From Eubacteriales bacterium (GTDB taxonomy: Bacteria > Bacillota > Clostridia > Lachnospirales > Lachnospiraceae), in NCBI GenBank assembly GCA_030524785.1, contig JAUNFZ010000001.1, positions 44,443 to 108,442 of the forward strand: DNA of 64,000 nt, in the 5' to 3' direction. Within the stretch, counting starts at the first letter, position 1, and each line of letters opens with the position of its first letter. This document shows positions 6,847 to 59,730 of the stretch, piece after piece. Under the pieces are notes generated by a model that ran no database searches, had not been told where the DNA came from, and worked only from the letters and a program-made list of their open reading frames with translations. Both the position numbers and the translations under genes were made by a program.

Positions 6847-7158
6847 ATGTCAGCGTTAAAGATCAAGAAAGGCGATAACGTCAGAGTAATCGCCGGCAAA
6901 GATAAAGACAAAGAGGGCAAGGTTCTGGCGGTTGACGTAAAGAATAACAGAGTCCTCGTAGAAGGCGTGAATATGGTTTCCAAGCACACAAAACCCTCTG
7001 CGGCAAATCAGCAGGGCGGCATTGTGAACAAAGAAGCTTACATCCATATTTCCAATGTAATGTTGCTGGTTGGCGGCAAGACAACAAGAGTTGGCTTCAA
7101 GATGGACGGAGATAAAAAAGTCCGCGTGGCAAAAGCTACCGGCGAAGTGATTGATTAA
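6847..7158 (+). CDS. rplX: 50S ribosomal protein L24
   Basis: [25 protein letters not shown] (KOW motif). AAGGAGG upstream. Confidence 0.97.
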
Positions 7159-7179
7159 TAGAGAGAGGAGGCCATACAG

Positions 7180-7719
7180 TTGAGTAGACTCAAAGAAACT
7201 TACAAGAACGAGATCGTAGACGCTATGATCAAAAAGTTCGGATATAAAAATATCATGGAAGTTCCGAAGCTTGACAAGGTAGTAGTCAACATGGGTGTCG
7301 GCGAGGCGAAGGAAAACGCAAAACTTCTGGAGTCCGCTGTGAAGGACATGGAGACGATCACAGGCCAGAAGGCAGTTCTGACCAGAGCAAAGAATTCTGT
7401 GGCAAACTTTAAAATCAGAGAGGGTATGGCAATCGGATGCAAGGTAACGCTGCGCGGCGAGAAGATGTATGAGTTTGTGGACCGTCTGATTAACCTGGCG
7501 CTTCCGCGTGTGCGCGACTTCCGCGGCGTAAACCCGAATGCATTTGATGGCAGAGGCAACTATGCTCTGGGCATCAAAGAGCAGTTGATTTTCCCGGAAA
7601 TTGAGTACGATAAAGTGGATAAAGTAAGAGGTATGGACGTTATTTTTGTAACGACCGCAAAGACCGACGAGGAAGCCCGCGAGCTTCTGACACAGTTCAA
7701 TATGCCTTTTGCAAAGTAA
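7180..7719 (+). CDS. rplE: 50S ribosomal protein L5
   Basis: TTG start with GAGGAGG upstream. [23 protein letters not shown]... Confidence 0.97.
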
Positions 7720-7752
7720 TTGCCGTTATCAGAGAAATAGGAGGAAGAATTC

Positions 7753-7938
7753 ATGGCTAAGACAGCAATGAAGTTAAAACAGCAGCGTAAACAGAAGTTC
7801 TCCACAAGAGAGTATAACCGCTGCAGAATCTGTGGTCGTCCGCATGCTTATTTGAGAAAATACGGTATTTGCAGAATCTGCTTCCGTGAACTGGCATATA
7901 AGGGACAGATCCCGGGCGTTAAGAAAGCAAGCTGGTAA
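7753..7938 (+). CDS. rpsN: 30S ribosomal protein S14, type Z (zinc-binding, 61 aa)
   Basis: [38 protein letters not shown]. The two CxxC pairs mark the short zinc form. Confidence 0.97.
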
Positions 7939-7977
7939 ATAAAACGTATAGAGTCTAAATGAAGGAGGACATATCAG

Positions 7978-8379
7978 ATGACTATGAGCGATCCGATTGC
8001 AGATATGCTTACAAGAATCCGTAATGCGAACACTGCAAAACATGATACAGTAGATGTGCCGTCGTCGAAAATGAAACTTGCCATCGCAAACATCCTGCTG
8101 GATGAGGGCTACATCACAAAATATGAAGTCGTTGAAGAAGGCGGTTTCCCGATTATTCGTATCACGCTGAAGTACGGCGCAGATAAGAACGAAAAAATTA
8201 TTTCAGGTATTAAGAGAATTTCCAAACCCGGTCTTCGCGTTTATGCGGGCAAGAATGAGATCCCCCGTGTGCTTGGCGGACTCGGCGTGGCAATTCTTTC
8301 CACAAACAAAGGCGTTATCACCGACAGAGAAGCGCGCAAACTGCAGGTTGGCGGCGAAGTTCTGGCGTTTGTGTGGTAA
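7978..8379 (+). CDS. rpsH: 30S ribosomal protein S8
   Basis: [17 protein letters not shown]... Confidence 0.98.
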
Positions 8380-8449
8380 ATGTTGAATCTTGACTGAAAA
8401 CAGAGCGGTGGATTCCGTTCCGAAAATTTAAGTAAGGAGGACATGAAAC

Positions 8450-8989
8450 ATGTCACGTATCGGAAGAATGCCGGTAGTTATTCCGGCAGGCGTCACAGTG
8501 ACTGTTGCAGAGGGCAACAAGGTGACGGTAAAGGGCAGCAAGGGTACACTGGAAAGAGTGCTCCCTGCAGAAATGGATATTAAGGTTGAGGACGGTCATG
8601 TGATCGTTACAAGACCAAATGATTTAAAGAAGATGAAATCCCTGCACGGCCTGACAAGAACCCTGATTCACAACATGGTTGTGGGCGTAAGCGAAGGCTA
8701 TACGAAGGTTCTGGAAGTGAACGGCGTAGGTTATCGTGCGGCAAAGCAGGGAAATAAACTGACCTTATCTCTTGGCTATTCCCATCCGGTAGAGATGATT
8801 GATCCGGAGGGCCTTGAGGCCGTAGTGGAAGGAAACAAGATTACGGTAAAAGGGATTGATAAAGAAAAAGTTGGCCAATACGCAGCTGAAATCAGAGAAA
8901 AGAGAGCTCCGGAACCCTACAAGGGCAAGGGTATTAAGTATGCTGATGAAGTGATCAGACGTAAAGTTGGTAAGACTGGTAAAAAATAA
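8450..8989 (+). CDS. rplF: 50S ribosomal protein L6
   Basis: [17 protein letters not shown]... Confidence 0.98.
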
Positions 8990-9006
8990 GTAAGGAGAGT
9001 GTGAAA

Positions 9007-9375
9007 ATGGTTAGTAAAGAATCAAGAACAAAAGTTCGTGTAAATAAACACAGAAAAATTCGTAATCGTTTTGCAGGCACTGCTGAAAGACCGCGTCTGG
9101 CTGTGTTTAGAAGCAATAATCATATGTATGCTCAAATTATTGACGATACAGTCGGAAATACGCTGGTTTCTGCATGTACCCTTCAGAAAGAGGTAAAAGC
9201 AGAGCTGGAGAAGACGAATAACGTTGATGCAGCAGCATACTTAGGAAAAGTAATTGCCGAGAAAGCTCTGGAGAAAGGAATTAAAACCGTTGTCTTTGAC
9301 AGAGGCGGCTTCATATATCAGGGTAAGATTCAGGCATTAGCAGATGCAGCCAGAGAAGCTGGTCTGGAATTTTAG
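9007..9375 (+). CDS. rplR: 50S ribosomal protein L18
   Basis: ...[31 protein letters not shown]... The ORF track starts at GTG 9001. ATG 9007 has better spacing to AAGGAGA (8993-8999). Confidence 0.95.
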
Positions 9376-9386
9376 GAGGTAGACAC

Positions 9387-9896
9387 ATGAAACGTGAAAT
9401 CATTGATGCAAATCAGTTTGAATTGACCGACAAGGTAGTGGCGATCAAACGTGTATCCAAGACGGTTAAAGGCGGACGTAATATGCGTTTCACAGCTCTG
9501 GTGGTTGTCGGCGACGGCAATGGACACGTTGGTGCCGGACTTGGAAAAGCTACTGAAATTCCGGAAGCTATCCGTAAGGGCAAAGAAGACGCTGCAAAGA
9601 AACTGATTACAGTTGCACTGGACGAAAACGCAAGTATCCCGCACGACTTTGAAGGAAAGTTCGGCGGCTCCCATGTAGTATTAAAGAGAGCTCCCGAAGG
9701 TACCGGTGTTATCGCAGGCGGTCCTGCACGTAACGTACTGGAAATGGCCGGAATCCGCAATATCCGTACAAAATCTCTGGGCTCCAGAAATAAACAGAAC
9801 GTTGTTCTGGCAACGCTGGAGGGACTGAAACAGCTCAAATCCCCGGAGGAAGTAGCAAGACTGCGCGGGAAATCTGTAGAAGAAGTTCGCGCATAG
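9387..9896 (+). CDS. rpsE: 30S ribosomal protein S5
   Basis: ...[33 protein letters not shown]... Confidence 0.98.
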
Positions 9897-9909
9897 GAGG
9901 ATTGGAAAA

Positions 9910-10092
9910 ATGGCAGATAAAGTAAAAGTAACCTTAGTAAAATCTACAATTGGTGCAATCCCGAAACATCGTGCTACGGTTGCTGCCCTTGGCCTGAAGA
10001 AGCTGAACAAGACCGTTGAGCTTCCGAACAACGCAGCGACAATGGGAATGGTAAAACAGGTACAGCATTTAGTTAAAGTAGAGGAAATCTAA
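9910..10092 (+). CDS. rpmD: 50S ribosomal protein L30
   Basis: 60 aa, VKVTLVKSTIGAIPKHRATVAALGL... Confidence 0.96.
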   Translation: MADKVKVTLVKSTIGAIPKHRATVAALGLKKLNKTVELPNNAATMGMVKQVQHLVKVEEI

Positions 10093-10556: not shown

Positions 10557-11878
10557 TGTTTGAAACACTTCGTAACGCGTTTAAGGTGAAGGACATCCGC
10601 AAGCGCATGCTGTATACATTCGGCATGCTGCTTGTGATTCGTCTTGGTTCACAGCTTCCGGTGCCAGGGGTAAATCGTGAGTTTTTGGCAAACTGGTTTG
10701 CAAGCCAGACGGATGGAGCCTTCAACTTTTTCAGTGCATTTACGGGCGGTTCCTTTGAAAAGATGTCTATTTTTGCACTGAACATTACGCCATATATTAC
10801 ATCATCTATTATTATGCAGCTTCTCACCATTGCGATTCCTCAGTTGGAGGAAATGCAGAAAGACGGCGAGGAGGGCAGAAAGAAAATTACGACAATTACC
10901 CGTTATGTGACCGTAGGCCTGGCTCTGGTAGAGTCGCTGGCTATGACGATTGCATTCGGAAAGGGCGGCTCCAGCAGTCTGATCCCGGATATGAACTTTA
11001 TAAAAGGACTTACGGTAGTTGTGGCTCTGACGGCCGGTTCCGCATTTCTTATGTGGGTCGGCGAGCAGATCACTGAGAAGGGCGTGGGCAACGGTATTTC
11101 GATTGTCCTGGTTATCAACATCCTTTCCAGGGTGCCGTCGGATATTGCTACGCTGTATGATTCCTTTGTGAAGGGCAAGACTCTGGCAAGAGGCGCGCTG
11201 GCTGCGCTGATTATTCTGGCGGTAATCGCGGTGACGATCGTTCTCGTTATCATTCTGAGCGACGCCACAAGACGTATCCCGGTGCAGTATGCAAAGAAAA
11301 TGCAGGGAAGAAAAATGATGGGCGGACAGTCCACCTATATTCCCCTGAAGGTAAACACCGCAGGCGTTATCCCGGTAATCTTTGCATCGTCGCTGTTCAG
11401 TATGCCGAGCATGATCGCATCCGTTTTGAACGTGTCTACGGACGGCGTGGGCGGAAAGATTCTGGCGGCGCTGAATCAGAACAACTGGTTTAATCCCAAC
11501 CAGCCGGTATATTCGGTCGGACTGATCCTGTATGTTGTGCTGATTATTGGATTTGCTTATTTCTATACTTCCATCACCTTCAATCCCATTGAAGTGGCGG
11601 ACAATATGAAAAAGCAGGGCGGTTTTATCCCCGGCATCCGTCCGGGCAAGCCTACCGTGGATTATCTGAACAGGATACTGAACTATATCGTGCTGATCGG
11701 TGCTATCGGTCTGACGATTGTTGTGCTGATACCGATCTTCTTTAACGGTGTATTTAAGGCGTACGTTTCCTTTGGCGGAACGTCGATCATTATTATCGTG
11801 GGCGTTATTCTGGAGACGATCAAGCAGATTGAATCTCAGATGGTAGTCCGCAATTATAAAGGCTTTTTGAGCGAGTAA
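10556..11878 (+). CDS. secY: preprotein translocase subunit SecY
   Basis: 440 aa polytopic membrane protein at the canonical position after rplO. ...ALNITPYITSSIIMQLL... Confidence 0.97.
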   Translation: MFETLRNAFKVKDIRKRMLYTFGMLLVIRLGSQLPVPGVNREFLANWFASQTDGAFNFFSAFTGGSFEKMSIFALNITPYITSSIIMQLLTIAIPQLEEMQKDGEEGRKKITTITRYVTVGLALVESLAMTIAFGKGGSSSLIPDMNFIKGLTVVVALTAGSAFLMWVGEQITEKGVGNGISIVLVINILSRVPSDIATLYDSFVKGKTLARGALAALIILAVIAVTIVLVIILSDATRRIPVQYAKKMQGRKMMGGQSTYIPLKVNTAGVIPVIFASSLFSMPSMIASVLNVSTDGVGGKILAALNQNNWFNPNQPVYSVGLILYVVLIIGFAYFYTSITFNPIEVADNMKKQGGFIPGIRPGKPTVDYLNRILNYIVLIGAIGLTIVVLIPIFFNGVFKAYVSFGGTSIIIIVGVILETIKQIESQMVVRNYKGFLSE

Positions 11879-54945: not shown

Positions 54946-55387
54946 CACGAGCGCAGTTTCCGAAGGAAAGCCACTGGCTGCTTGCAGCCGGGAGGATTTT
55001 CTTTCGGAAACTATGTGAGTGAAACGAACAGCGAGAAAGCGAAGCTTTGGAGCGGGCGCTCGTGAGAGCAGAGGGGCGCTGCAGAAAGCGCGCAAGGAAA
55101 GCCACTGGCTGCTTGCAGCCGGGAGGATTTTCTTTCGGAAACTATGTGAGTGAAACGAACAGCGAGAAAGCGAAGCTTTGGAGCGGGCGCTCGTGAGAGC
55201 AGAGGGGCGCTGCAGAAAGCGCGCAAGGAAAGCCACTGGCTGCTTGCAGCCGGGAGGATTTTCTTTCGGAAACTATGTGAGTGAAACGAACAGCGAGAAA
55301 GCGAAGCTTTGGAGCGGGCGCTCGTGAGAGCAAAGGGGCGCTGCAGAAAGCGAAGCTTTGGAGCGGGCGCTCGTGAAAGCAGAGGGG
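54946..55387. repeat. 131-bp tandem repeat array, three full units plus a 35-nt partial unit
   Basis: aaggaaagccactggctgcttgcagcc... recurs at 54963, 55094 and 55225 (period 131). A partial fourth unit (55353-55387) is joined at the internal microhomology agaaagcg. The units are nearly identical. Confidence 0.95.
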
Positions 55388-55394
55388 ATTGTTT

Positions 55395-56882
55395 ATGGCG
55401 CAAAAAGATTTACGAACATATCATCGCCGAGGGGTAACTCGTGAAAGTGGTTATCATACTTGCGATGAAACAACCGGCGGTGAATGTCTTATCCTTCACG
55501 CAGAACGATATGTATGTGAAACCGATACGGTAACATTTGTATTTTCCCGTTCTTCTGTTGATGTTGTTGAGCTCTTTGAAAAAGGAATTTCCATTATTGC
55601 TTTTGGCGGGTATATTCATTCTTCTGAGAAGGCAACTATATCACTGGACATGAGATATAGCTATGAGGGAGAGGGGTATGCCTTTGGCGAGGATTGGGAG
55701 CAAACGATAGAGTCTGATAGCTGGTCAAATATTGGTATTCACGCAGAGCAGCTAATCAACAAAGATTCACAGCTTATTGATGTAATTGTCAAAATGACCA
55801 TATCAGGTAAACAGGGTAATATCCTGGATTTCATTGCTTTTGACTTGGATGTGGTATCCAAAGAAGAATTTCAGGATACTTCTTGTGCGACGAGTTTCTA
55901 CCAAAAAACAAGTATGCATGTGCCGTATCTATATTATCTGCGTTCTGACTTACCGATTGACTGGTATCTTACTTCTGGTCAAAAGTTTGTTGAAGGACGG
56001 CGCATTGTAGCAAAAAGCTGTAACCGCTGCGGCCGATATTTACCGATTAATATTGATGATGAGTTAAAAACATTGAGCTTTTCTTTACACTGCAAAAAAA
56101 GAGCCCCTTGTATTCACTCGACTTTTAGAGCTTACAAAATACAAAACCAAGCGGATTTGAAAGCCGGGGATTTCAGGGGACTAACGATTGAAGACGGAAA
56201 GGTTGTGTCGTATTACGGACACCAACTTGAGTGTAAGGCTTGTAAAAAGTTCTTTGTTAATGCGCCTTTGAATCCTCAGCGTAACGCTCAACAGTTCAAG
56301 GAAGATGGATTGAGACGAAGGGCAATTGAGGTTTTGGTCAACACGCTTTTGGATAGGAACCTTATTCATTTTGAGTTTGAACGCCGTACCAAAAAGGAGT
56401 TTTCCCGTTATATTTGGGAAAAGTTTGACAGGCGATGTTTCAAGTGTGGCCCGGATTCAGATCCTATTGCGTTAGGAGATATGGCTTTAGATCACACGAT
56501 GCCGCTGGCCTATCTTTATCGTTTAGACGAGACCGCAACTTGCTTGTGCAGCAGTCACAATTCCCAAAAAAGTGACCATTTCCCAGTTGATTACTATAGC
56601 GAGGAAGAACTTATTCGGCTGAGCCAAATTACCGGCTTATCATTAACGCAGCTTCATAAAAAAGAGGTTAACCGGCAAGTTCTTGATTTACTTATTGAAA
56701 ATGTCGTATGGTTCTATGATGATTTTTTAATGAATCCTGACTACCAAAAGGTAAGGGATGGTATACGAACCGCTGACAAAATCAATGATTCTTTAAAACG
56801 TATCATTGCCGGAAAGGTTGACCTCGCAGAAAAATATCGTAAGGAAACCGGACACTATCCTCTATCAGTAACAATTAAATAA
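55395..56882 (+). CDS. putative restriction endonuclease: unknown N-terminal region, zinc-ribbon CxxC pairs, and an HNH (beta-beta-alpha-Me) nuclease motif
   Basis: 495 aa from ATG 55395, 7 nt after AGAGGGGA. SCNRCGRY, ECKACKKF, CFKCGP, then ...LDHTMPLAYLYRLDETATCLCSSHNSQKSDH... Low GC. Convergent with a DNA methyltransferase. Confidence 0.75.
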   Translation: MAQKDLRTYHRRGVTRESGYHTCDETTGGECLILHAERYVCETDTVTFVFSRSSVDVVELFEKGISIIAFGGYIHSSEKATISLDMRYSYEGEGYAFGEDWEQTIESDSWSNIGIHAEQLINKDSQLIDVIVKMTISGKQGNILDFIAFDLDVVSKEEFQDTSCATSFYQKTSMHVPYLYYLRSDLPIDWYLTSGQKFVEGRRIVAKSCNRCGRYLPINIDDELKTLSFSLHCKKRAPCIHSTFRAYKIQNQADLKAGDFRGLTIEDGKVVSYYGHQLECKACKKFFVNAPLNPQRNAQQFKEDGLRRRAIEVLVNTLLDRNLIHFEFERRTKKEFSRYIWEKFDRRCFKCGPDSDPIALGDMALDHTMPLAYLYRLDETATCLCSSHNSQKSDHFPVDYYSEEELIRLSQITGLSLTQLHKKEVNRQVLDLLIENVVWFYDDFLMNPDYQKVRDGIRTADKINDSLKRIIAGKVDLAEKYRKETGHYPLSVTIK

Positions 56883-56894
56883 CTGTGCAAAAAT

Positions 56895-56919
56895 CGGGGC
56901 TGGAATTTCACCAGTCCCG
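56895..56919. terminator. shared hairpin between the convergent nuclease and methyltransferase genes
   Basis: CGGGGCTGG (56895-56903) pairs with CCAGTCCCG (56911-56919), one G-T wobble, loop AATTTCA. Flanked by A-rich sequence on the 5' side and GTTTG on the 3' side. Confidence 0.6.
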
Positions 56920-56925
56920 GTTTGC

Positions 56926-59289
56926 CTACTTTTTCATCAGGAACAAGTATTGATGTTCAACCGTTGAACCTTTGTCTTTAATGCCATGCTTCTCAATCTC
57001 TTGAACACTCTCAGTTCCTCGATATACTTCAATAAAATACGGTGCTGCTCGTCTGGATAGTTCTTCTGCCATATCAACTTTTTCTGTTTTGCCGAGATGA
57101 AGTATTACTTTCCCGTTAGGTTTCAAAATGTCGTAACACATCTTGAAAAAGGAAATATAAACATCAAAATCCCTGCGCTGTTTTTGGTCAAGAAATGCGT
57201 TGTCAGCATTTTTAAAGTCGCTTTCTTCCCAACCGCACAACCAGAGACGCATCCAGTTTTGCATATAAAATCTTATTGAATCGGCAAATGGCGGTGAACA
57301 AATGACAGCATCGGCAGAAATATTACAGGCACTCAGTTCCTGATAATCTCCATATATTGCCTGTCCAAATCTATAATTGTCAAATTCACCTTTTTGGAAC
57401 GAAGCAGTCAATTTGTCTTTTACATGCTCCACCACATTCTTGTACACGAAGTCTCCTGTAGGAGCATACGGAGTGAGTGGATGGGAGTTACGGGATAAAG
57501 CGTATGGTCTGTTGCCATGAAGCACATGTAATAGGCACGAGAAAACCATTGCCTCTGCGGAAGAAAGCGTTTTTATTCTGGGTACAAAATAGTTTCGTGT
57601 GCAAAGTATTTCTCTATAGGTGTCTTTGTGAAAGTAGCTCGGCAACTTTCCATTGAATCCAAAGTTTTCATATTTCACAATCTGCGCTGCGATTACATCG
57701 CTTAGTTTTTCTTGCTCAATATAGGATTGTAATTCATCCAGAACCTTGATACAGTCTTGTTCATCAGCTTTTTCAACTTTTGCTTTTGTTACACAAAAAG
57801 CGAGTTCACTCAGGTCGTTTCCGATACCAATTCTATTCTGTAGACACGCCTCCAAAGGAATTGTGCCTACACCGCTTAACGGATCTACAATGATATCTCC
57901 AGGCTCGGTAAATTGTTCTACCAGGAAATGAGCAATGGCAGGCTTTAGTTTTCCGTGATATGAGCACAGTGAGTGCCATGGATGCCCCCAGTTTCTTCCT
58001 GAATATGGTGCAGCCTTATATGGCATGGTATTTATAAAGTTTTGAGCTTCATTGTGAAAAACTTCAAATGGCGAAGCTGTTTGATGAAAGCGAAACTTCA
58101 ATAATCTTTGTGAAAGGATCATTCCGTTTTTTGATCTGCGTTCTCTTAGGATATCTTCTCCGTATAATTCAAATCCATACGATGCACAAATCTTTACAAG
58201 TATTTCGTGAGTAGGGATATGAACTCCGGCAAATTGAGAATCTCCAATGTCCATAATGAAATATCCGTTATCCTTCATCGCATGAGAAAGACGCTCGATA
58301 ACGTTTTCCATATCGTGAAAATAGCCTGCCACCATAATCGGGATGCGCTTGTCGTAGGCCACAGGGGTTAAGTCGTCAATGTATGGACGGACAACTTCTG
58401 GAATTTCAAAATTGGCATTGCGGGCAGATATATTGTTGATGCCTGCAATAATTCCTTTTGAATGATATTTCGGCAGATCTTTTTCAGTAACAACATAATC
58501 TGTAAGTTTTAATTCGAGTTTCGTATTTCTGGTATAGTTTGTCCCATTCAAATAAGGGGGTGAGGTAATCACACAATCAATTTGATTTTCCACCTCAATA
58601 TCTCTGGCATCGTCTGCCAATCGAATAGTCTCTGCCATAGTAGGACAGCAGCCGCTTTCAATATCTTCAATAGCCGCTTCAATTTTGCCCATAAAGTTTG
58701 CGAGAATATCTTTATCTTCGACTTTCTTTTCATTTTCCTTTGCAAATCGCAAATCGCCTTGGCGTATCATTTTAGAAGCTCTGACCGTAACTGATGCCAA
58801 AAGAATCAAAGCAATGCTTCGTGTGTCAGTATTGGGAATTTTTTCAACTTTCTTTTTCAAATCTTGCAGTTGTGCAAGAACTTCCGGTTCAAAATACTTT
58901 TCAAATCCGTCCCATGTTGGCTTATCAAAGTAAAGCTGATAATGATAGTTTTCCAGTTCATTTAAAAATTTTTTCAGATATTTACTGCCTGTCTGGCTAT
59001 CCCGTAATCTTTTTACCGCATTAGTTTTTGCTTCTATGACTTGCCGCATAAAGGGATTTGTTTCGCAGTAGAATGATTTAATACCATGCGAAGATGCAAC
59101 TAACGAAGTAGTGCCAGTCCCACAAAAAGGGTCGAAAATTATGTGAATATTTTCTGGACCAATTTCCATGATAATATCATCAATCAGGCAAGAAGAATAG
59201 CCCTCCAAATAGGGATACCATCTATGGATAGGTTCTCCTTTGTTCAAGGCGAAGGTTGCTGCCGCTGCCTTGGAATAATTATTTCCCAT
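56926..59289 (-). CDS. fused double DNA methyltransferase (two modules, motif IV SPPY and SPPF; predicted N4-cytosine or N6-adenine)
   Basis: Module 1: FDPFCGTGTTSLVA ... VITSPPYLNGTNY. Module 2: IVDPLSGVGTIPLEA ... VICSPPFADSIRFY. My preferred start is ATG 59287-59289 (787 aa). The ORF track starts at TTG 59331 (801 aa). Confidence 0.85.
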   Translation of the reverse strand: MGNNYSKAAAATFALNKGEPIHRWYPYLEGYSSCLIDDIIMEIGPENIHIIFDPFCGTGTTSLVASSHGIKSFYCETNPFMRQVIEAKTNAVKRLRDSQTGSKYLKKFLNELENYHYQLYFDKPTWDGFEKYFEPEVLAQLQDLKKKVEKIPNTDTRSIALILLASVTVRASKMIRQGDLRFAKENEKKVEDKDILANFMGKIEAAIEDIESGCCPTMAETIRLADDARDIEVENQIDCVITSPPYLNGTNYTRNTKLELKLTDYVVTEKDLPKYHSKGIIAGINNISARNANFEIPEVVRPYIDDLTPVAYDKRIPIMVAGYFHDMENVIERLSHAMKDNGYFIMDIGDSQFAGVHIPTHEILVKICASYGFELYGEDILRERRSKNGMILSQRLLKFRFHQTASPFEVFHNEAQNFINTMPYKAAPYSGRNWGHPWHSLCSYHGKLKPAIAHFLVEQFTEPGDIIVDPLSGVGTIPLEACLQNRIGIGNDLSELAFCVTKAKVEKADEQDCIKVLDELQSYIEQEKLSDVIAAQIVKYENFGFNGKLPSYFHKDTYREILCTRNYFVPRIKTLSSAEAMVFSCLLHVLHGNRPYALSRNSHPLTPYAPTGDFVYKNVVEHVKDKLTASFQKGEFDNYRFGQAIYGDYQELSACNISADAVICSPPFADSIRFYMQNWMRLWLCGWEESDFKNADNAFLDQKQRRDFDVYISFFKMCYDILKPNGKVILHLGKTEKVDMAEELSRRAAPYFIEVYRGTESVQEIEKHGIKDKGSTVEHQYLFLMKK

Positions 59290-59503
59290 TTTGCCCTTCT
59301 TCCTGTTGACGATGTTCAACAACATCCTCAATACTGCAATGAAAGTAATTACATATCCTGTCTATTATTTCAAGAGAAACAATCTCTGAACGCCCCATTT
59401 TATCCATAGTAGATTTTGAAATTTTTGTTTCTTTCATGAGATCTTTTTTGCTCATATCTCTGTCGATGAGTAATTTCCATAATGGCTTATATGAAAAAGA
59501 CAT
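59279..59503 (-). CDS. small XRE/Cro-type helix-turn-helix protein (candidate controller of the R-M module)
   Basis: 74 aa from the ATG at 59501-59503, after AAAGGAGGAG. MSFSYKPLWKLLIDRDMSKKDLMKETKISKSTMDKMGRSEIVSLEIIDRICNYFHCSIEDVVE. Its 3' end overlaps the methyltransferase start by 11 nt. Confidence 0.8.
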   Translation of the reverse strand: MSFSYKPLWKLLIDRDMSKKDLMKETKISKSTMDKMGRSEIVSLEIIDRICNYFHCSIEDVVEHRQQEEGQNGK

Positions 59504-59528
59504 TTCTTCTCCTCCTTTTATGGGTGAT

Positions 59529-59565
59529 ATTTTACTGCAAAAGTGTTGTGAAGTCAATACTTTTG
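59529..59565 (-). promoter_or_regulatory. promoter with an embedded inverted repeat upstream of the HTH-methyltransferase operon
   Basis: Minus strand: TTGACT (59552-59557), 17-nt spacer, TAAAAT (59529-59534). Inverted repeat CAAAAGT (59538-59544) / ACTTTTG (59559-59565) brackets the -35. Confidence 0.55.
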
Positions 59566-59730
59566 TATCTATTCACTTTTTATCGTTTTTCATTTGCAAT
59601 CTGCAGAAACTCAGGGCAAATGGATATTGACTTGCGGCTTCAAACATGCGAAGATGTAGGGGAGACAGAGCCGGTGCCGGCGGGCACAGGGCCTGGTGGG
59701 AACATAAAAGTAGGAAAGGAAAAAGAAGGA

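Follow-up and report, generated by a model that had tools for sequence, protein, structure and literature searches.

A probable Type II restriction–modification cassette with a predicted HNH nuclease and a two-module methyltransferase between purF and purB of a Lachnospiraceae bacterium

Restriction–modification (R-M) systems of the Alw26I/Eco31I/Esp3I family contain two methyltransferase activities, carried by one fused protein in some members and by two proteins in others, and pair an N6-adenine enzyme with a C5-cytosine enzyme. SapI and BspQI consist of a nuclease of ~430 amino acids (aa) and two separate amino-methyltransferases. In general, two distinct, co-inherited methyltransferases are the usual signature of asymmetric recognition sites (Type IIS/IIA systems). 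The HNH restriction enzymes of Type II R-M systems have been reviewed (PMC4081073) and classified (PMC2441816); SapI and BspQI form an HNH subfamily of the Type IIS enzymes (PMC2441816), and the general features of zinc-containing HNH, or His-Me finger, nucleases have also been described, HNH enzymes frequently accepting Mn, Ni or Co (PMC4081073). Here, we analyzed a stretch of 64,000 nucleotides (hereafter, the window) from an Eubacteriales bacterium of the family Lachnospiraceae (assembly GCA_030524785.1, contig JAUNFZ010000001.1, positions 44,443 to 108,442 of the forward strand), in which low-GC DNA between purF and purB, at window positions 55390–59570, forms a 4.18-kb cassette encoding three proteins: a putative nuclease (R), a methyltransferase with two modules (M) and a small helix-turn-helix (HTH) protein (C(M)). 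We consider it highly probable that this cassette is a horizontally acquired, compact Type II R-M system for an asymmetric site, most probably of Type IIS. The features that bear most directly on this reading are as follows.

55390–59570, no strand: R-M cassette, delimited by blastn against the cassettes of loci L001, L002, L003 and L007, which lie in unrelated contexts
55395–56882, plus strand: gene of R, a putative restriction endonuclease of 495 aa (open reading frame; 510 homologs)
55482–55853, plus strand: R aa 30–153, all-beta sandwich domain (AlphaFold, pLDDT mostly >90; the least conserved part of R)
55989–56594, plus strand: R aa 199–400, Cys/His-rich zinc clusters and HNH/endonuclease VII-type core (invariant residues, PHROG and fold matches)
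58042–59289, minus strand: M module 1 (M1), an amino-methyltransferase, aa 1–416 (motif I DPFCGTGT at aa 53, SPPY at aa 243)
56926–58041, minus strand: M module 2 (M2), an amino-methyltransferase, aa 417–787 and the stop codon (motif I DPLSGVGT at aa 469, SPPF at aa 665)

The borders of the cassette were defined by comparison with related copies. The blastn alignments to L001, L002, L003 and L007 extended from 55390 to 59568–59570 with 76–79% identity, and the flanks showed no homology. The GC content of the cassette was 0.394, compared with 0.504 in the rest of the window; among 259 equal-sized segments outside the cassette, the minimum was 0.452 (mean 0.503, sd 0.02). A similar difference was found at third codon positions, where the GC content was 0.37 for R and 0.35 for M, compared with 0.66 for purF and 0.55 for purB. 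The two flanking genes were identified by the NCBIfam equivalog models TIGR01134 (purF) and TIGR00928 (purB), each above its cut-off. An original prediction, made from the letters of the window, had placed three low-GC genes between these two genes and the right border of the island near 59570–59600; both statements were borne out, as the homology ends at 59568–59570 and the GC content has recovered by ~59600. The reading frame of R can start at TTG 55389 or at ATG 55395, and the 495 aa obtained from the ATG correspond to the length of nearly all homologs. The frame of M (56926–59331, minus strand) gives 801 aa from a TTG and 787 aa from ATG 59289. Because an in-frame stop codon lies upstream of this position in the relatives L001, L007 and L019, the true start is the ATG. 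Thus, of the convergent two-module methyltransferase of 787–801 aa that had been predicted, the two modules, the orientation and the length of 787 aa stood, and the extension to 801 aa did not.

R belongs to a large family that current profile libraries do not cover. No match to the window protein was found in Pfam (E up to 0.1), NCBIfam or PADLOC, nor among PDB sequences, whether the single protein (even at E = 10) or a 62-member profile was used as the query, in line with the earlier suggestion that the combination of genes might be uncatalogued. A PHROG endonuclease VII profile matched aa 274–413 (E = 6e-6). Searches with two different queries yielded 510 and 733 clusters of homologs at 90% identity, and 931 related representatives were obtained at 50% identity (E ≤ 1e-3) from bacteria and archaea; the best homolog was 92% identical. 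Nearly all of these proteins are named 'hypothetical', a few carry automatic 'HNH endonuclease' or 'McrA' labels, and the cluster names of partial relatives were uninformative. Two curated restriction-enzyme models alone showed any similarity to the family, both through a single homolog, encoded on the plasmid L113: PADLOC REase_II (PDLC03469; E = 1e-3, this homolog alone) and TIGR02986, the Alw26I/Eco31I/Esp3I model, which scored 15.6 bits over the HNH region against a cut-off of 443.85 and did not match the window R.

We then considered the conservation of individual residues of R in alignments of 23 and of 62 sequences. The invariant residues were C209, C212, H241, C280, C283, C348, C351, D366, H367, C385, N389 and K392, and those nearly invariant were H232, C233, C239 and C383, the last being invariant in the 23 sequences and conserved in ≥90% of the 62. 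Among these residues, C348xxC351, D366-H367, C383xC385, N389 and K392 constitute the catalytic core motif. This pattern is that expected of a zinc-stabilized HNH/endonuclease VII site preceded by additional zinc clusters, and the earlier description of a 495-aa HNH protein with CxxC pairs holds for the frame at 55395–56882. No curated HNH profile matched the window R above its threshold, and among the family members such matches were sub-threshold, Pfam HNH_5 and Endonuclease_7 each being found in 10 of the 62.

The structure predictions pointed in the same direction. AlphaFold models of R were confident (pLDDT, the predicted local distance difference test score, 88). When the whole protein was used as the query, Foldseek returned generic beta-sandwich folds alone. 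The isolated C-terminal half matched, among PDB folds, Cas9, the isolated HNH domain of Cas9 and ScoMcrA, that is, almost exclusively HNH proteins, and in BFVD it matched phage HNH and endonuclease VII proteins; the matches in both searches were weak. From this convergence of weak matches, together with the motif, we accept R as a predicted HNH/His-Me finger nuclease. The similarity of the beta-sandwich itself to folds of the CBM, MAM and jelly-roll type was loose (E = 7e-6, TM-score ~0.4). It is the part of R with the lowest conservation and is replaced or shortened in sister families; relatives of R have positions ~200–450 in common and differ in the beta-domain. The Cys/His-rich region that follows the beta-sandwich is conserved and belongs with the catalytic half. 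The ~330 aa of unassigned N-terminal sequence that had been proposed as a recognition domain are therefore not one block: aa 30–153 form a beta-sandwich that is a candidate for this role, followed by the Cys/His-rich region, and only ~155 aa of the N-terminus look variable and possibly represent a recognition domain. In comparison with the R of L001, the nonsynonymous (dN) and synonymous (dS) divergences were 0.046 and 1.79, respectively (dN/dS ~0.03); M showed a similarly low dN, with saturated synonymous sites. These values indicate that R and M are both under strong purifying selection.

In M, module 1 matched PADLOC MTase_II (PDLC03389) over its full length (E = 1e-68), and module 2 matched Pfam N6_N4_Mtase, UPF0020 and Eco57I; the E-value of Pfam N6_N4_Mtase against M was 6e-19. 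In 25 loci, motif I, SPPY of module 1 and SPPF of module 2 were invariant, with motif I located ~190 aa before SPPY or SPPF. The two modules were 33% identical to each other over 63 aa. They are encoded by one fused gene in 16 of 26 loci and by two adjacent or overlapping genes in the other 10, and because they occur as separate genes in these 10 loci, the modules appear to be two independent enzymes. Two distinct modules, fused or split, would fit an asymmetric site served by two methyltransferase activities, and the Type IIS-like character that had been suggested for the fused methyltransferase is compatible with this. PDB sequences matched the motif I region alone, and because N4-cytosine and N6-adenine enzymes were mixed among these matches, they do not settle the methylated base; SPPY and SPPF suggest N4-cytosine methylation, with N6-adenine methylation being possible.

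The genomic association of the nuclease with the methyltransferases was strict. We defined a locus as informative if its contig extended beyond R, and found R convergent with the same two methyltransferases in 28 out of 28 informative loci; in the four loci that lack M, the contig stops at R or shortly beyond it. The linked loci came from Firmicutes, Saccharibacteria, Sphaerochaeta (Spirochaetes), an alphaproteobacterium, Flavobacterium (Bacteroidota), and Natronococcus and Methanobacterium (Archaea). On a 6.4-kb Psychrobacter plasmid (L113), the replication gene repM and a small open reading frame without a name accompany M1, M2, R and an HTH gene located upstream of R, and little else is encoded. 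We further found proteins of 400–470 aa that have the Cys-rich and HNH half in common with R and contain a different N-terminal domain. In the corresponding sister family of ~430 aa (339 clusters), R is likewise convergent with orthologs of M1 and M2 (L114–L117), in hosts including Streptomyces, Pseudomonas and Mycobacteroides. The linkage of nuclease homologs to methyltransferases, which the original prediction had left to be checked, thus extends over the informative loci, the plasmid and three sister-family genomes. These comparisons suggest that the R-M1-M2 loci belong to one broad superfamily with a variable N-terminal domain of R, an architecture that would fit Type IIS enzymes acting on asymmetric sites.

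Genes of GmrSD type (Type IV restriction) were also observed to adjoin the sister R-M1-M2 genes in Pseudomonas and Mycobacteroides (L115, 9554–11278; L116, 4923–6701; L117, 2271–4349), which places them in a defence-island context.

From these data we infer the enzymatic activity of the cassette, the methylated base, the asymmetry of the site and cleavage outside it, as well as the repressor role of the HTH protein and expression of R by read-through. In the mechanism that we favor, each module of M would methylate one strand of the asymmetric site, and the zinc-stabilized HNH (beta-beta-alpha-metal) domain of R would cut unmethylated DNA, with the variable N-terminal beta-sandwich probably contributing to sequence recognition. 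The HTH protein would be translated together with M and would probably bind a palindrome at its own promoter, limiting the expression of M. Because R has neither its own controller gene nor a recognizable promoter, it would be transcribed from upstream, from the purF side. Tentatively, and with more doubt than confidence, we also propose a wider reading, in which R and its relatives of ~430 and ~330 aa constitute a large Type IIS superfamily lacking a characterized member, in which interchangeable N-terminal beta-sandwich (CBM-like) domains read the DNA and a conserved zinc-rich HNH module cleaves it, and in which R and M each have a controller of their own in the full system.

The surroundings of the cassette support its foreign origin. 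In 80 metagenome loci whose purF was 70–84% identical to that of the window, purB followed purF after ~20–100 bp in ~60, and R or M was present in none of the 80. Exact look-ups of the purF and purB proteins retrieved no same-species locus without the island on record. Because the closest metagenome purF is 84% identical, the empty site is shown for related taxa at the family or genus level only. These observations indicate a foreign, horizontally acquired insertion between adjacent core genes, as had been proposed. On its left side, the cassette adjoins the following feature.

54963–55388, plus strand: 131-bp tandem repeat array with three full units and one partial unit (Tandem Repeats Finder)

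The array (period 131, 3.0 to 3.3 copies, 99% matches) lies between the stop codon of purF and the start of R, adjoins the ribosome-binding site of R and has a host-like GC content of 0.57. Within the 64 kb, the units were found only here, and they were not found in the related purF-purB loci; in each unit, a terminator-like hairpin precedes a U-rich tract. The array represents the left junction, outside the transferred cassette. A host repeat had been described as broken at 55387/55388: the sharp border stood, one base further on (55388/55389), and the repeat proved to be a local 131-bp tandem array and not a dispersed element. As a candidate structured RNA, the repeat unit was rejected (fold z-score –0.47). 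In some R-M insertions, long target duplications appear as flanking direct repeats of >30 bp (Furuta et al., PMC2853133); this mechanism was rejected for the window, as the 131-bp units occur on the left side only. The only sequence common to both flanks was the 9-mer CTGCAGAAA at 55341–55349 and 59601–59609, in agreement with the earlier statement that there is no clear target duplication. This direct match of 9 nt lies inside a repeat unit on one side and ~30 nt past the right homology border on the other, and its length was reached in 5 of 500 shuffles; it is a weak candidate for what is left of a duplicated target or of the intergenic sequence that preceded the insertion.

The absence of mobility genes that had been noted was confirmed, in that no recognizable integrase or transposase was found among the open reading frames of 52–64 kb, the translations of which were read by eye, without a family-library scan. 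Rfam returned nothing relevant for 53–60 kb, and a match to RAGATH-12 (E = 0.84) was taken as chance. A phage collection contained no homolog, and there is thus no evidence for phage carriage. Other genes were seen in the purF-purB gap of a few related loci, as judged from translations only: in L105 (9462–11492), a lipoprotein-like open reading frame together with a pair resembling a Phd/YefM-type antitoxin and a RelE/ParE-type toxin, and in L111 (9628–10278), an HD-domain-like open reading frame. Accessory genes may land in this gap repeatedly. In addition, a serine recombinase-like open reading frame, judged by eye, lies beside the cassette in L001 (5544–6164, minus strand), and a gene matching Pfam Integrase_1 lies beside that in L115 (1658–2638). 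Such neighboring recombinase genes could explain the mobility of the cassette elsewhere; nothing comparable is located near the window copy.

The remaining features of the cassette concern its expression.

59279–59503, minus strand: C(M), a 74-aa Cro/C1-type HTH protein (Pfam HTH_26, E = 5e-18)
59529–59565, minus strand: promoter and putative operator of the C-M operon (–35 TTGACT at 59557–59552, –10 TAAAAT at 59534–59529)
56891–56923, no strand: hairpin between the convergent stop codons of R and M (13-pair stem, 7 G-C, T-tract)

The open reading frame of the HTH protein (59279–59557, minus strand) gives 74 aa from ATG 59503, which is preceded by GGAGGAG. Its TAA stop codon (59279–59281) and the start codon of M (59287–59289) are arranged so that the two genes overlap by 11 nt, as had been stated together with the proposal that they are translationally coupled. 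An HTH_26 gene is present on the M side in about nine loci, including L001, L002, L003, L007, L013, L016, L021 and L026, at the same position. The promoter was the best match in the region (10 of 12 positions, spacer of 17 nt). An 11-nt inverted repeat (59538–59548 and 59555–59565, 91% complementary) lies between and over the –35 and –10 hexamers; its consensus AAAAGTATTG-N6-CAATACTTTT is kept in L001, L002, L003 and L007, and the window contains a single copy. The HTH protein would thus repress its own operon through this putative operator, and the location between –35 and –10 suggests plain autorepression, not the activation-then-repression switch of classical C proteins. The hairpin, which had been recognized as shared by the nuclease and methyltransferase genes, has a stem (GGGACTGG/CCAGTCCC) that is kept in L001, L003, L007 and L019, and it is a probable bidirectional terminator.

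A second HTH gene, of the HTH_3 type and 69–80 aa in length, lies on the R side of other cassettes (L001, 6777–6986; L003, 2573–2782; L019, 6778–7050; L113, 5357–5599). In L001 and L003 the 69-aa gene ends 14 nt before the start of R; the gene is also found in L002, at the same upstream position, in L017 and in the Flavobacterium locus L029. The gene thus occurs in the closest relatives and in distant members but not in the window, and in some cassettes each of the two operons has its own, different HTH regulator.

Several points weigh against the R-M reading. The R-side controller of the closest relatives is not present upstream of R in the window, and no sigma-70-like promoter was found in the 450 bp upstream of R, between purF and R. 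Because of this missing promoter and the terminator-like hairpins in the repeat units, R may be poorly expressed or silent. Among the HNH fold matches, none is strong (best E = 2.8e-3 and 1.5e-2), and Pfam gave no HNH match to the R of the window. No characterized enzyme could be tied to the R family in the profile libraries, the PDB or the literature. Finally, the Type IIS cleavage geometry is deduced from the architecture of the system, and DNA reading by the beta-sandwich is a candidate role only.

The points on expression raise the alternative of a decaying or functionally solitary methyltransferase locus, in which M and its regulator are active and R is silent or being lost. The missing R-side HTH_3 gene, the lack of a promoter-like site between purF and R and the hairpins of the repeat units all fit this explanation. 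We nevertheless regard it as unlikely, since the R frame is full-length and keeps every family-invariant residue, and the gene, with 92% identity to its best homolog and a dN/dS of ~0.03, bears the mark of selection. The R-side HTH gene is also absent in many family members (L004, L006, L010–L012, L014 and others), and the ribosome-binding site region of the window R matches that of L006, which has no R-side HTH gene; the missing controller may for these reasons be a normal variant. Expression of R in this host is uncertain.

The fold match to ScoMcrA, although weak, the few automatic McrA labels on homologs and the defence islands in which sister-family loci adjoin GmrSD genes raise a different explanation, in which R is a modification-dependent (Type IV, McrA-like) or other non-cognate HNH enzyme that happens to lie beside unrelated methyltransferases. 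Such an enzyme would not need two specific methyltransferases, yet the trio stays linked in all informative loci, from bacteria as well as archaea, and on a minimal plasmid; moreover, the McrA labels are transfers from the HNH motif alone, and neither Pfam nor Foldseek revealed an SRA, PUA or other domain that reads modified bases. We find this explanation very improbable. Scarcely any credence, likewise, can be given to an orthodox Type IIP-like enzyme with a symmetric or degenerate site, the methyltransferases serving another purpose such as single-stranded or hemimethylated DNA: KpnI, Hpy99I and PacI are indeed HNH Type IIP homodimers (PMC4081073), but the two co-inherited methyltransferases, 33% identical over 63 aa and fused or split, the combination of a variable N-domain with a conserved catalytic domain in R, and the closest, very weak curated match, to the Type IIS Alw26I/Eco31I/Esp3I family, all argue otherwise.

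Individual copies of the nuclease gene showed further variation. In L007, a complete Lachnospiraceae genome (CP143549), the first eight codons of R are replaced at 6980–7030 by an unrelated sequence that includes a stop codon, and the rest of the cassette is intact; this R may be truncated or translated from another start. Natronococcus roseus (L027) contains two tandem nuclease paralogs (7001–8533 and 8806–10032), which share 40% and 27% identity with the R of the window, ahead of split M1 and M2 genes. In a Pelotomaculum metagenome-assembled genome (L026), the nuclease gene (7001–8054 and 10572–10979) is interrupted by an insertion of ~2.5 kb, and frame breaks are present in the methyltransferase, so that this copy is probably inactivated.

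The R-M reading of the cassette has consequences beyond this locus. As the nuclease lies outside all Pfam, NCBIfam and PADLOC models and all PDB sequences, M would probably be reported as an orphan by defence finders, and such loci have probably been counted as orphan methyltransferases in surveys of defence systems and methylomes, a blind spot shared by PADLOC, Pfam and NCBIfam. The main value of the locus is that it points to a large R-M superfamily that spans bacteria and archaea, escapes current profile libraries and may contain new Type IIS specificities. Should the family prove truly uncharacterized, it could yield such specificities, of use for DNA assembly and the engineering of nicking enzymes. 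If the beta-sandwich does read DNA, this fold would be new as a recognition element of restriction enzymes, and several new specificities could be drawn from it. For this genome, the finding is that of a selfish-type module in the conserved purF-purB pair, with no mobility gene recognized. The general understanding of R-M systems is unchanged.

In kind, the system is an ordinary one: an R-M system of probable Type II, more precisely probable Type IIS, whose nuclease is of the predicted HNH class. The Alw26I/Eco31I/Esp3I enzymes (TIGR02986) resemble the cassette as we read it, being of Type IIS with an HNH catalytic site. Unlike in that family, both methyltransferases of the cassette are amino-methyltransferases, with SPPY and SPPF, and the nuclease carries, in addition, a beta-sandwich at its N-terminus and further Cys/His clusters. 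SapI and BspQI, of Type IIS and predicted to be HNH/endonuclease VII-like, resemble the ~430-aa sister family in size and layout and are plausible relatives of it, a likeness that serves as a lead only; the window nuclease, of 495 aa, differs in having a larger N-terminal domain than this sister family. With T4 endonuclease VII, Hpy99I, the Cas9 HNH domain and McrA, R has in common a predicted zinc site around a beta-beta-alpha-metal core and the catalytic residues Asp, His and Asn. In contrast to these proteins, the second cysteine pair of R is CxC and not CxxC, and the core forms part of a 495-aa protein that contains further domains and is strictly linked to two methyltransferases. As in systems of the C.PvuII and C.AhdI type, a small HTH gene heads an operon and a palindromic operator lies at its own promoter; in the window, however, this gene heads the operon of M and not that of R, and it encodes an HTH_26 (VanU-like) protein. 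The position of the C.PvuII and C.AhdI controllers, upstream of R, is held by the HTH_3 gene in the closest relatives, whereas the window copy has no such gene there.

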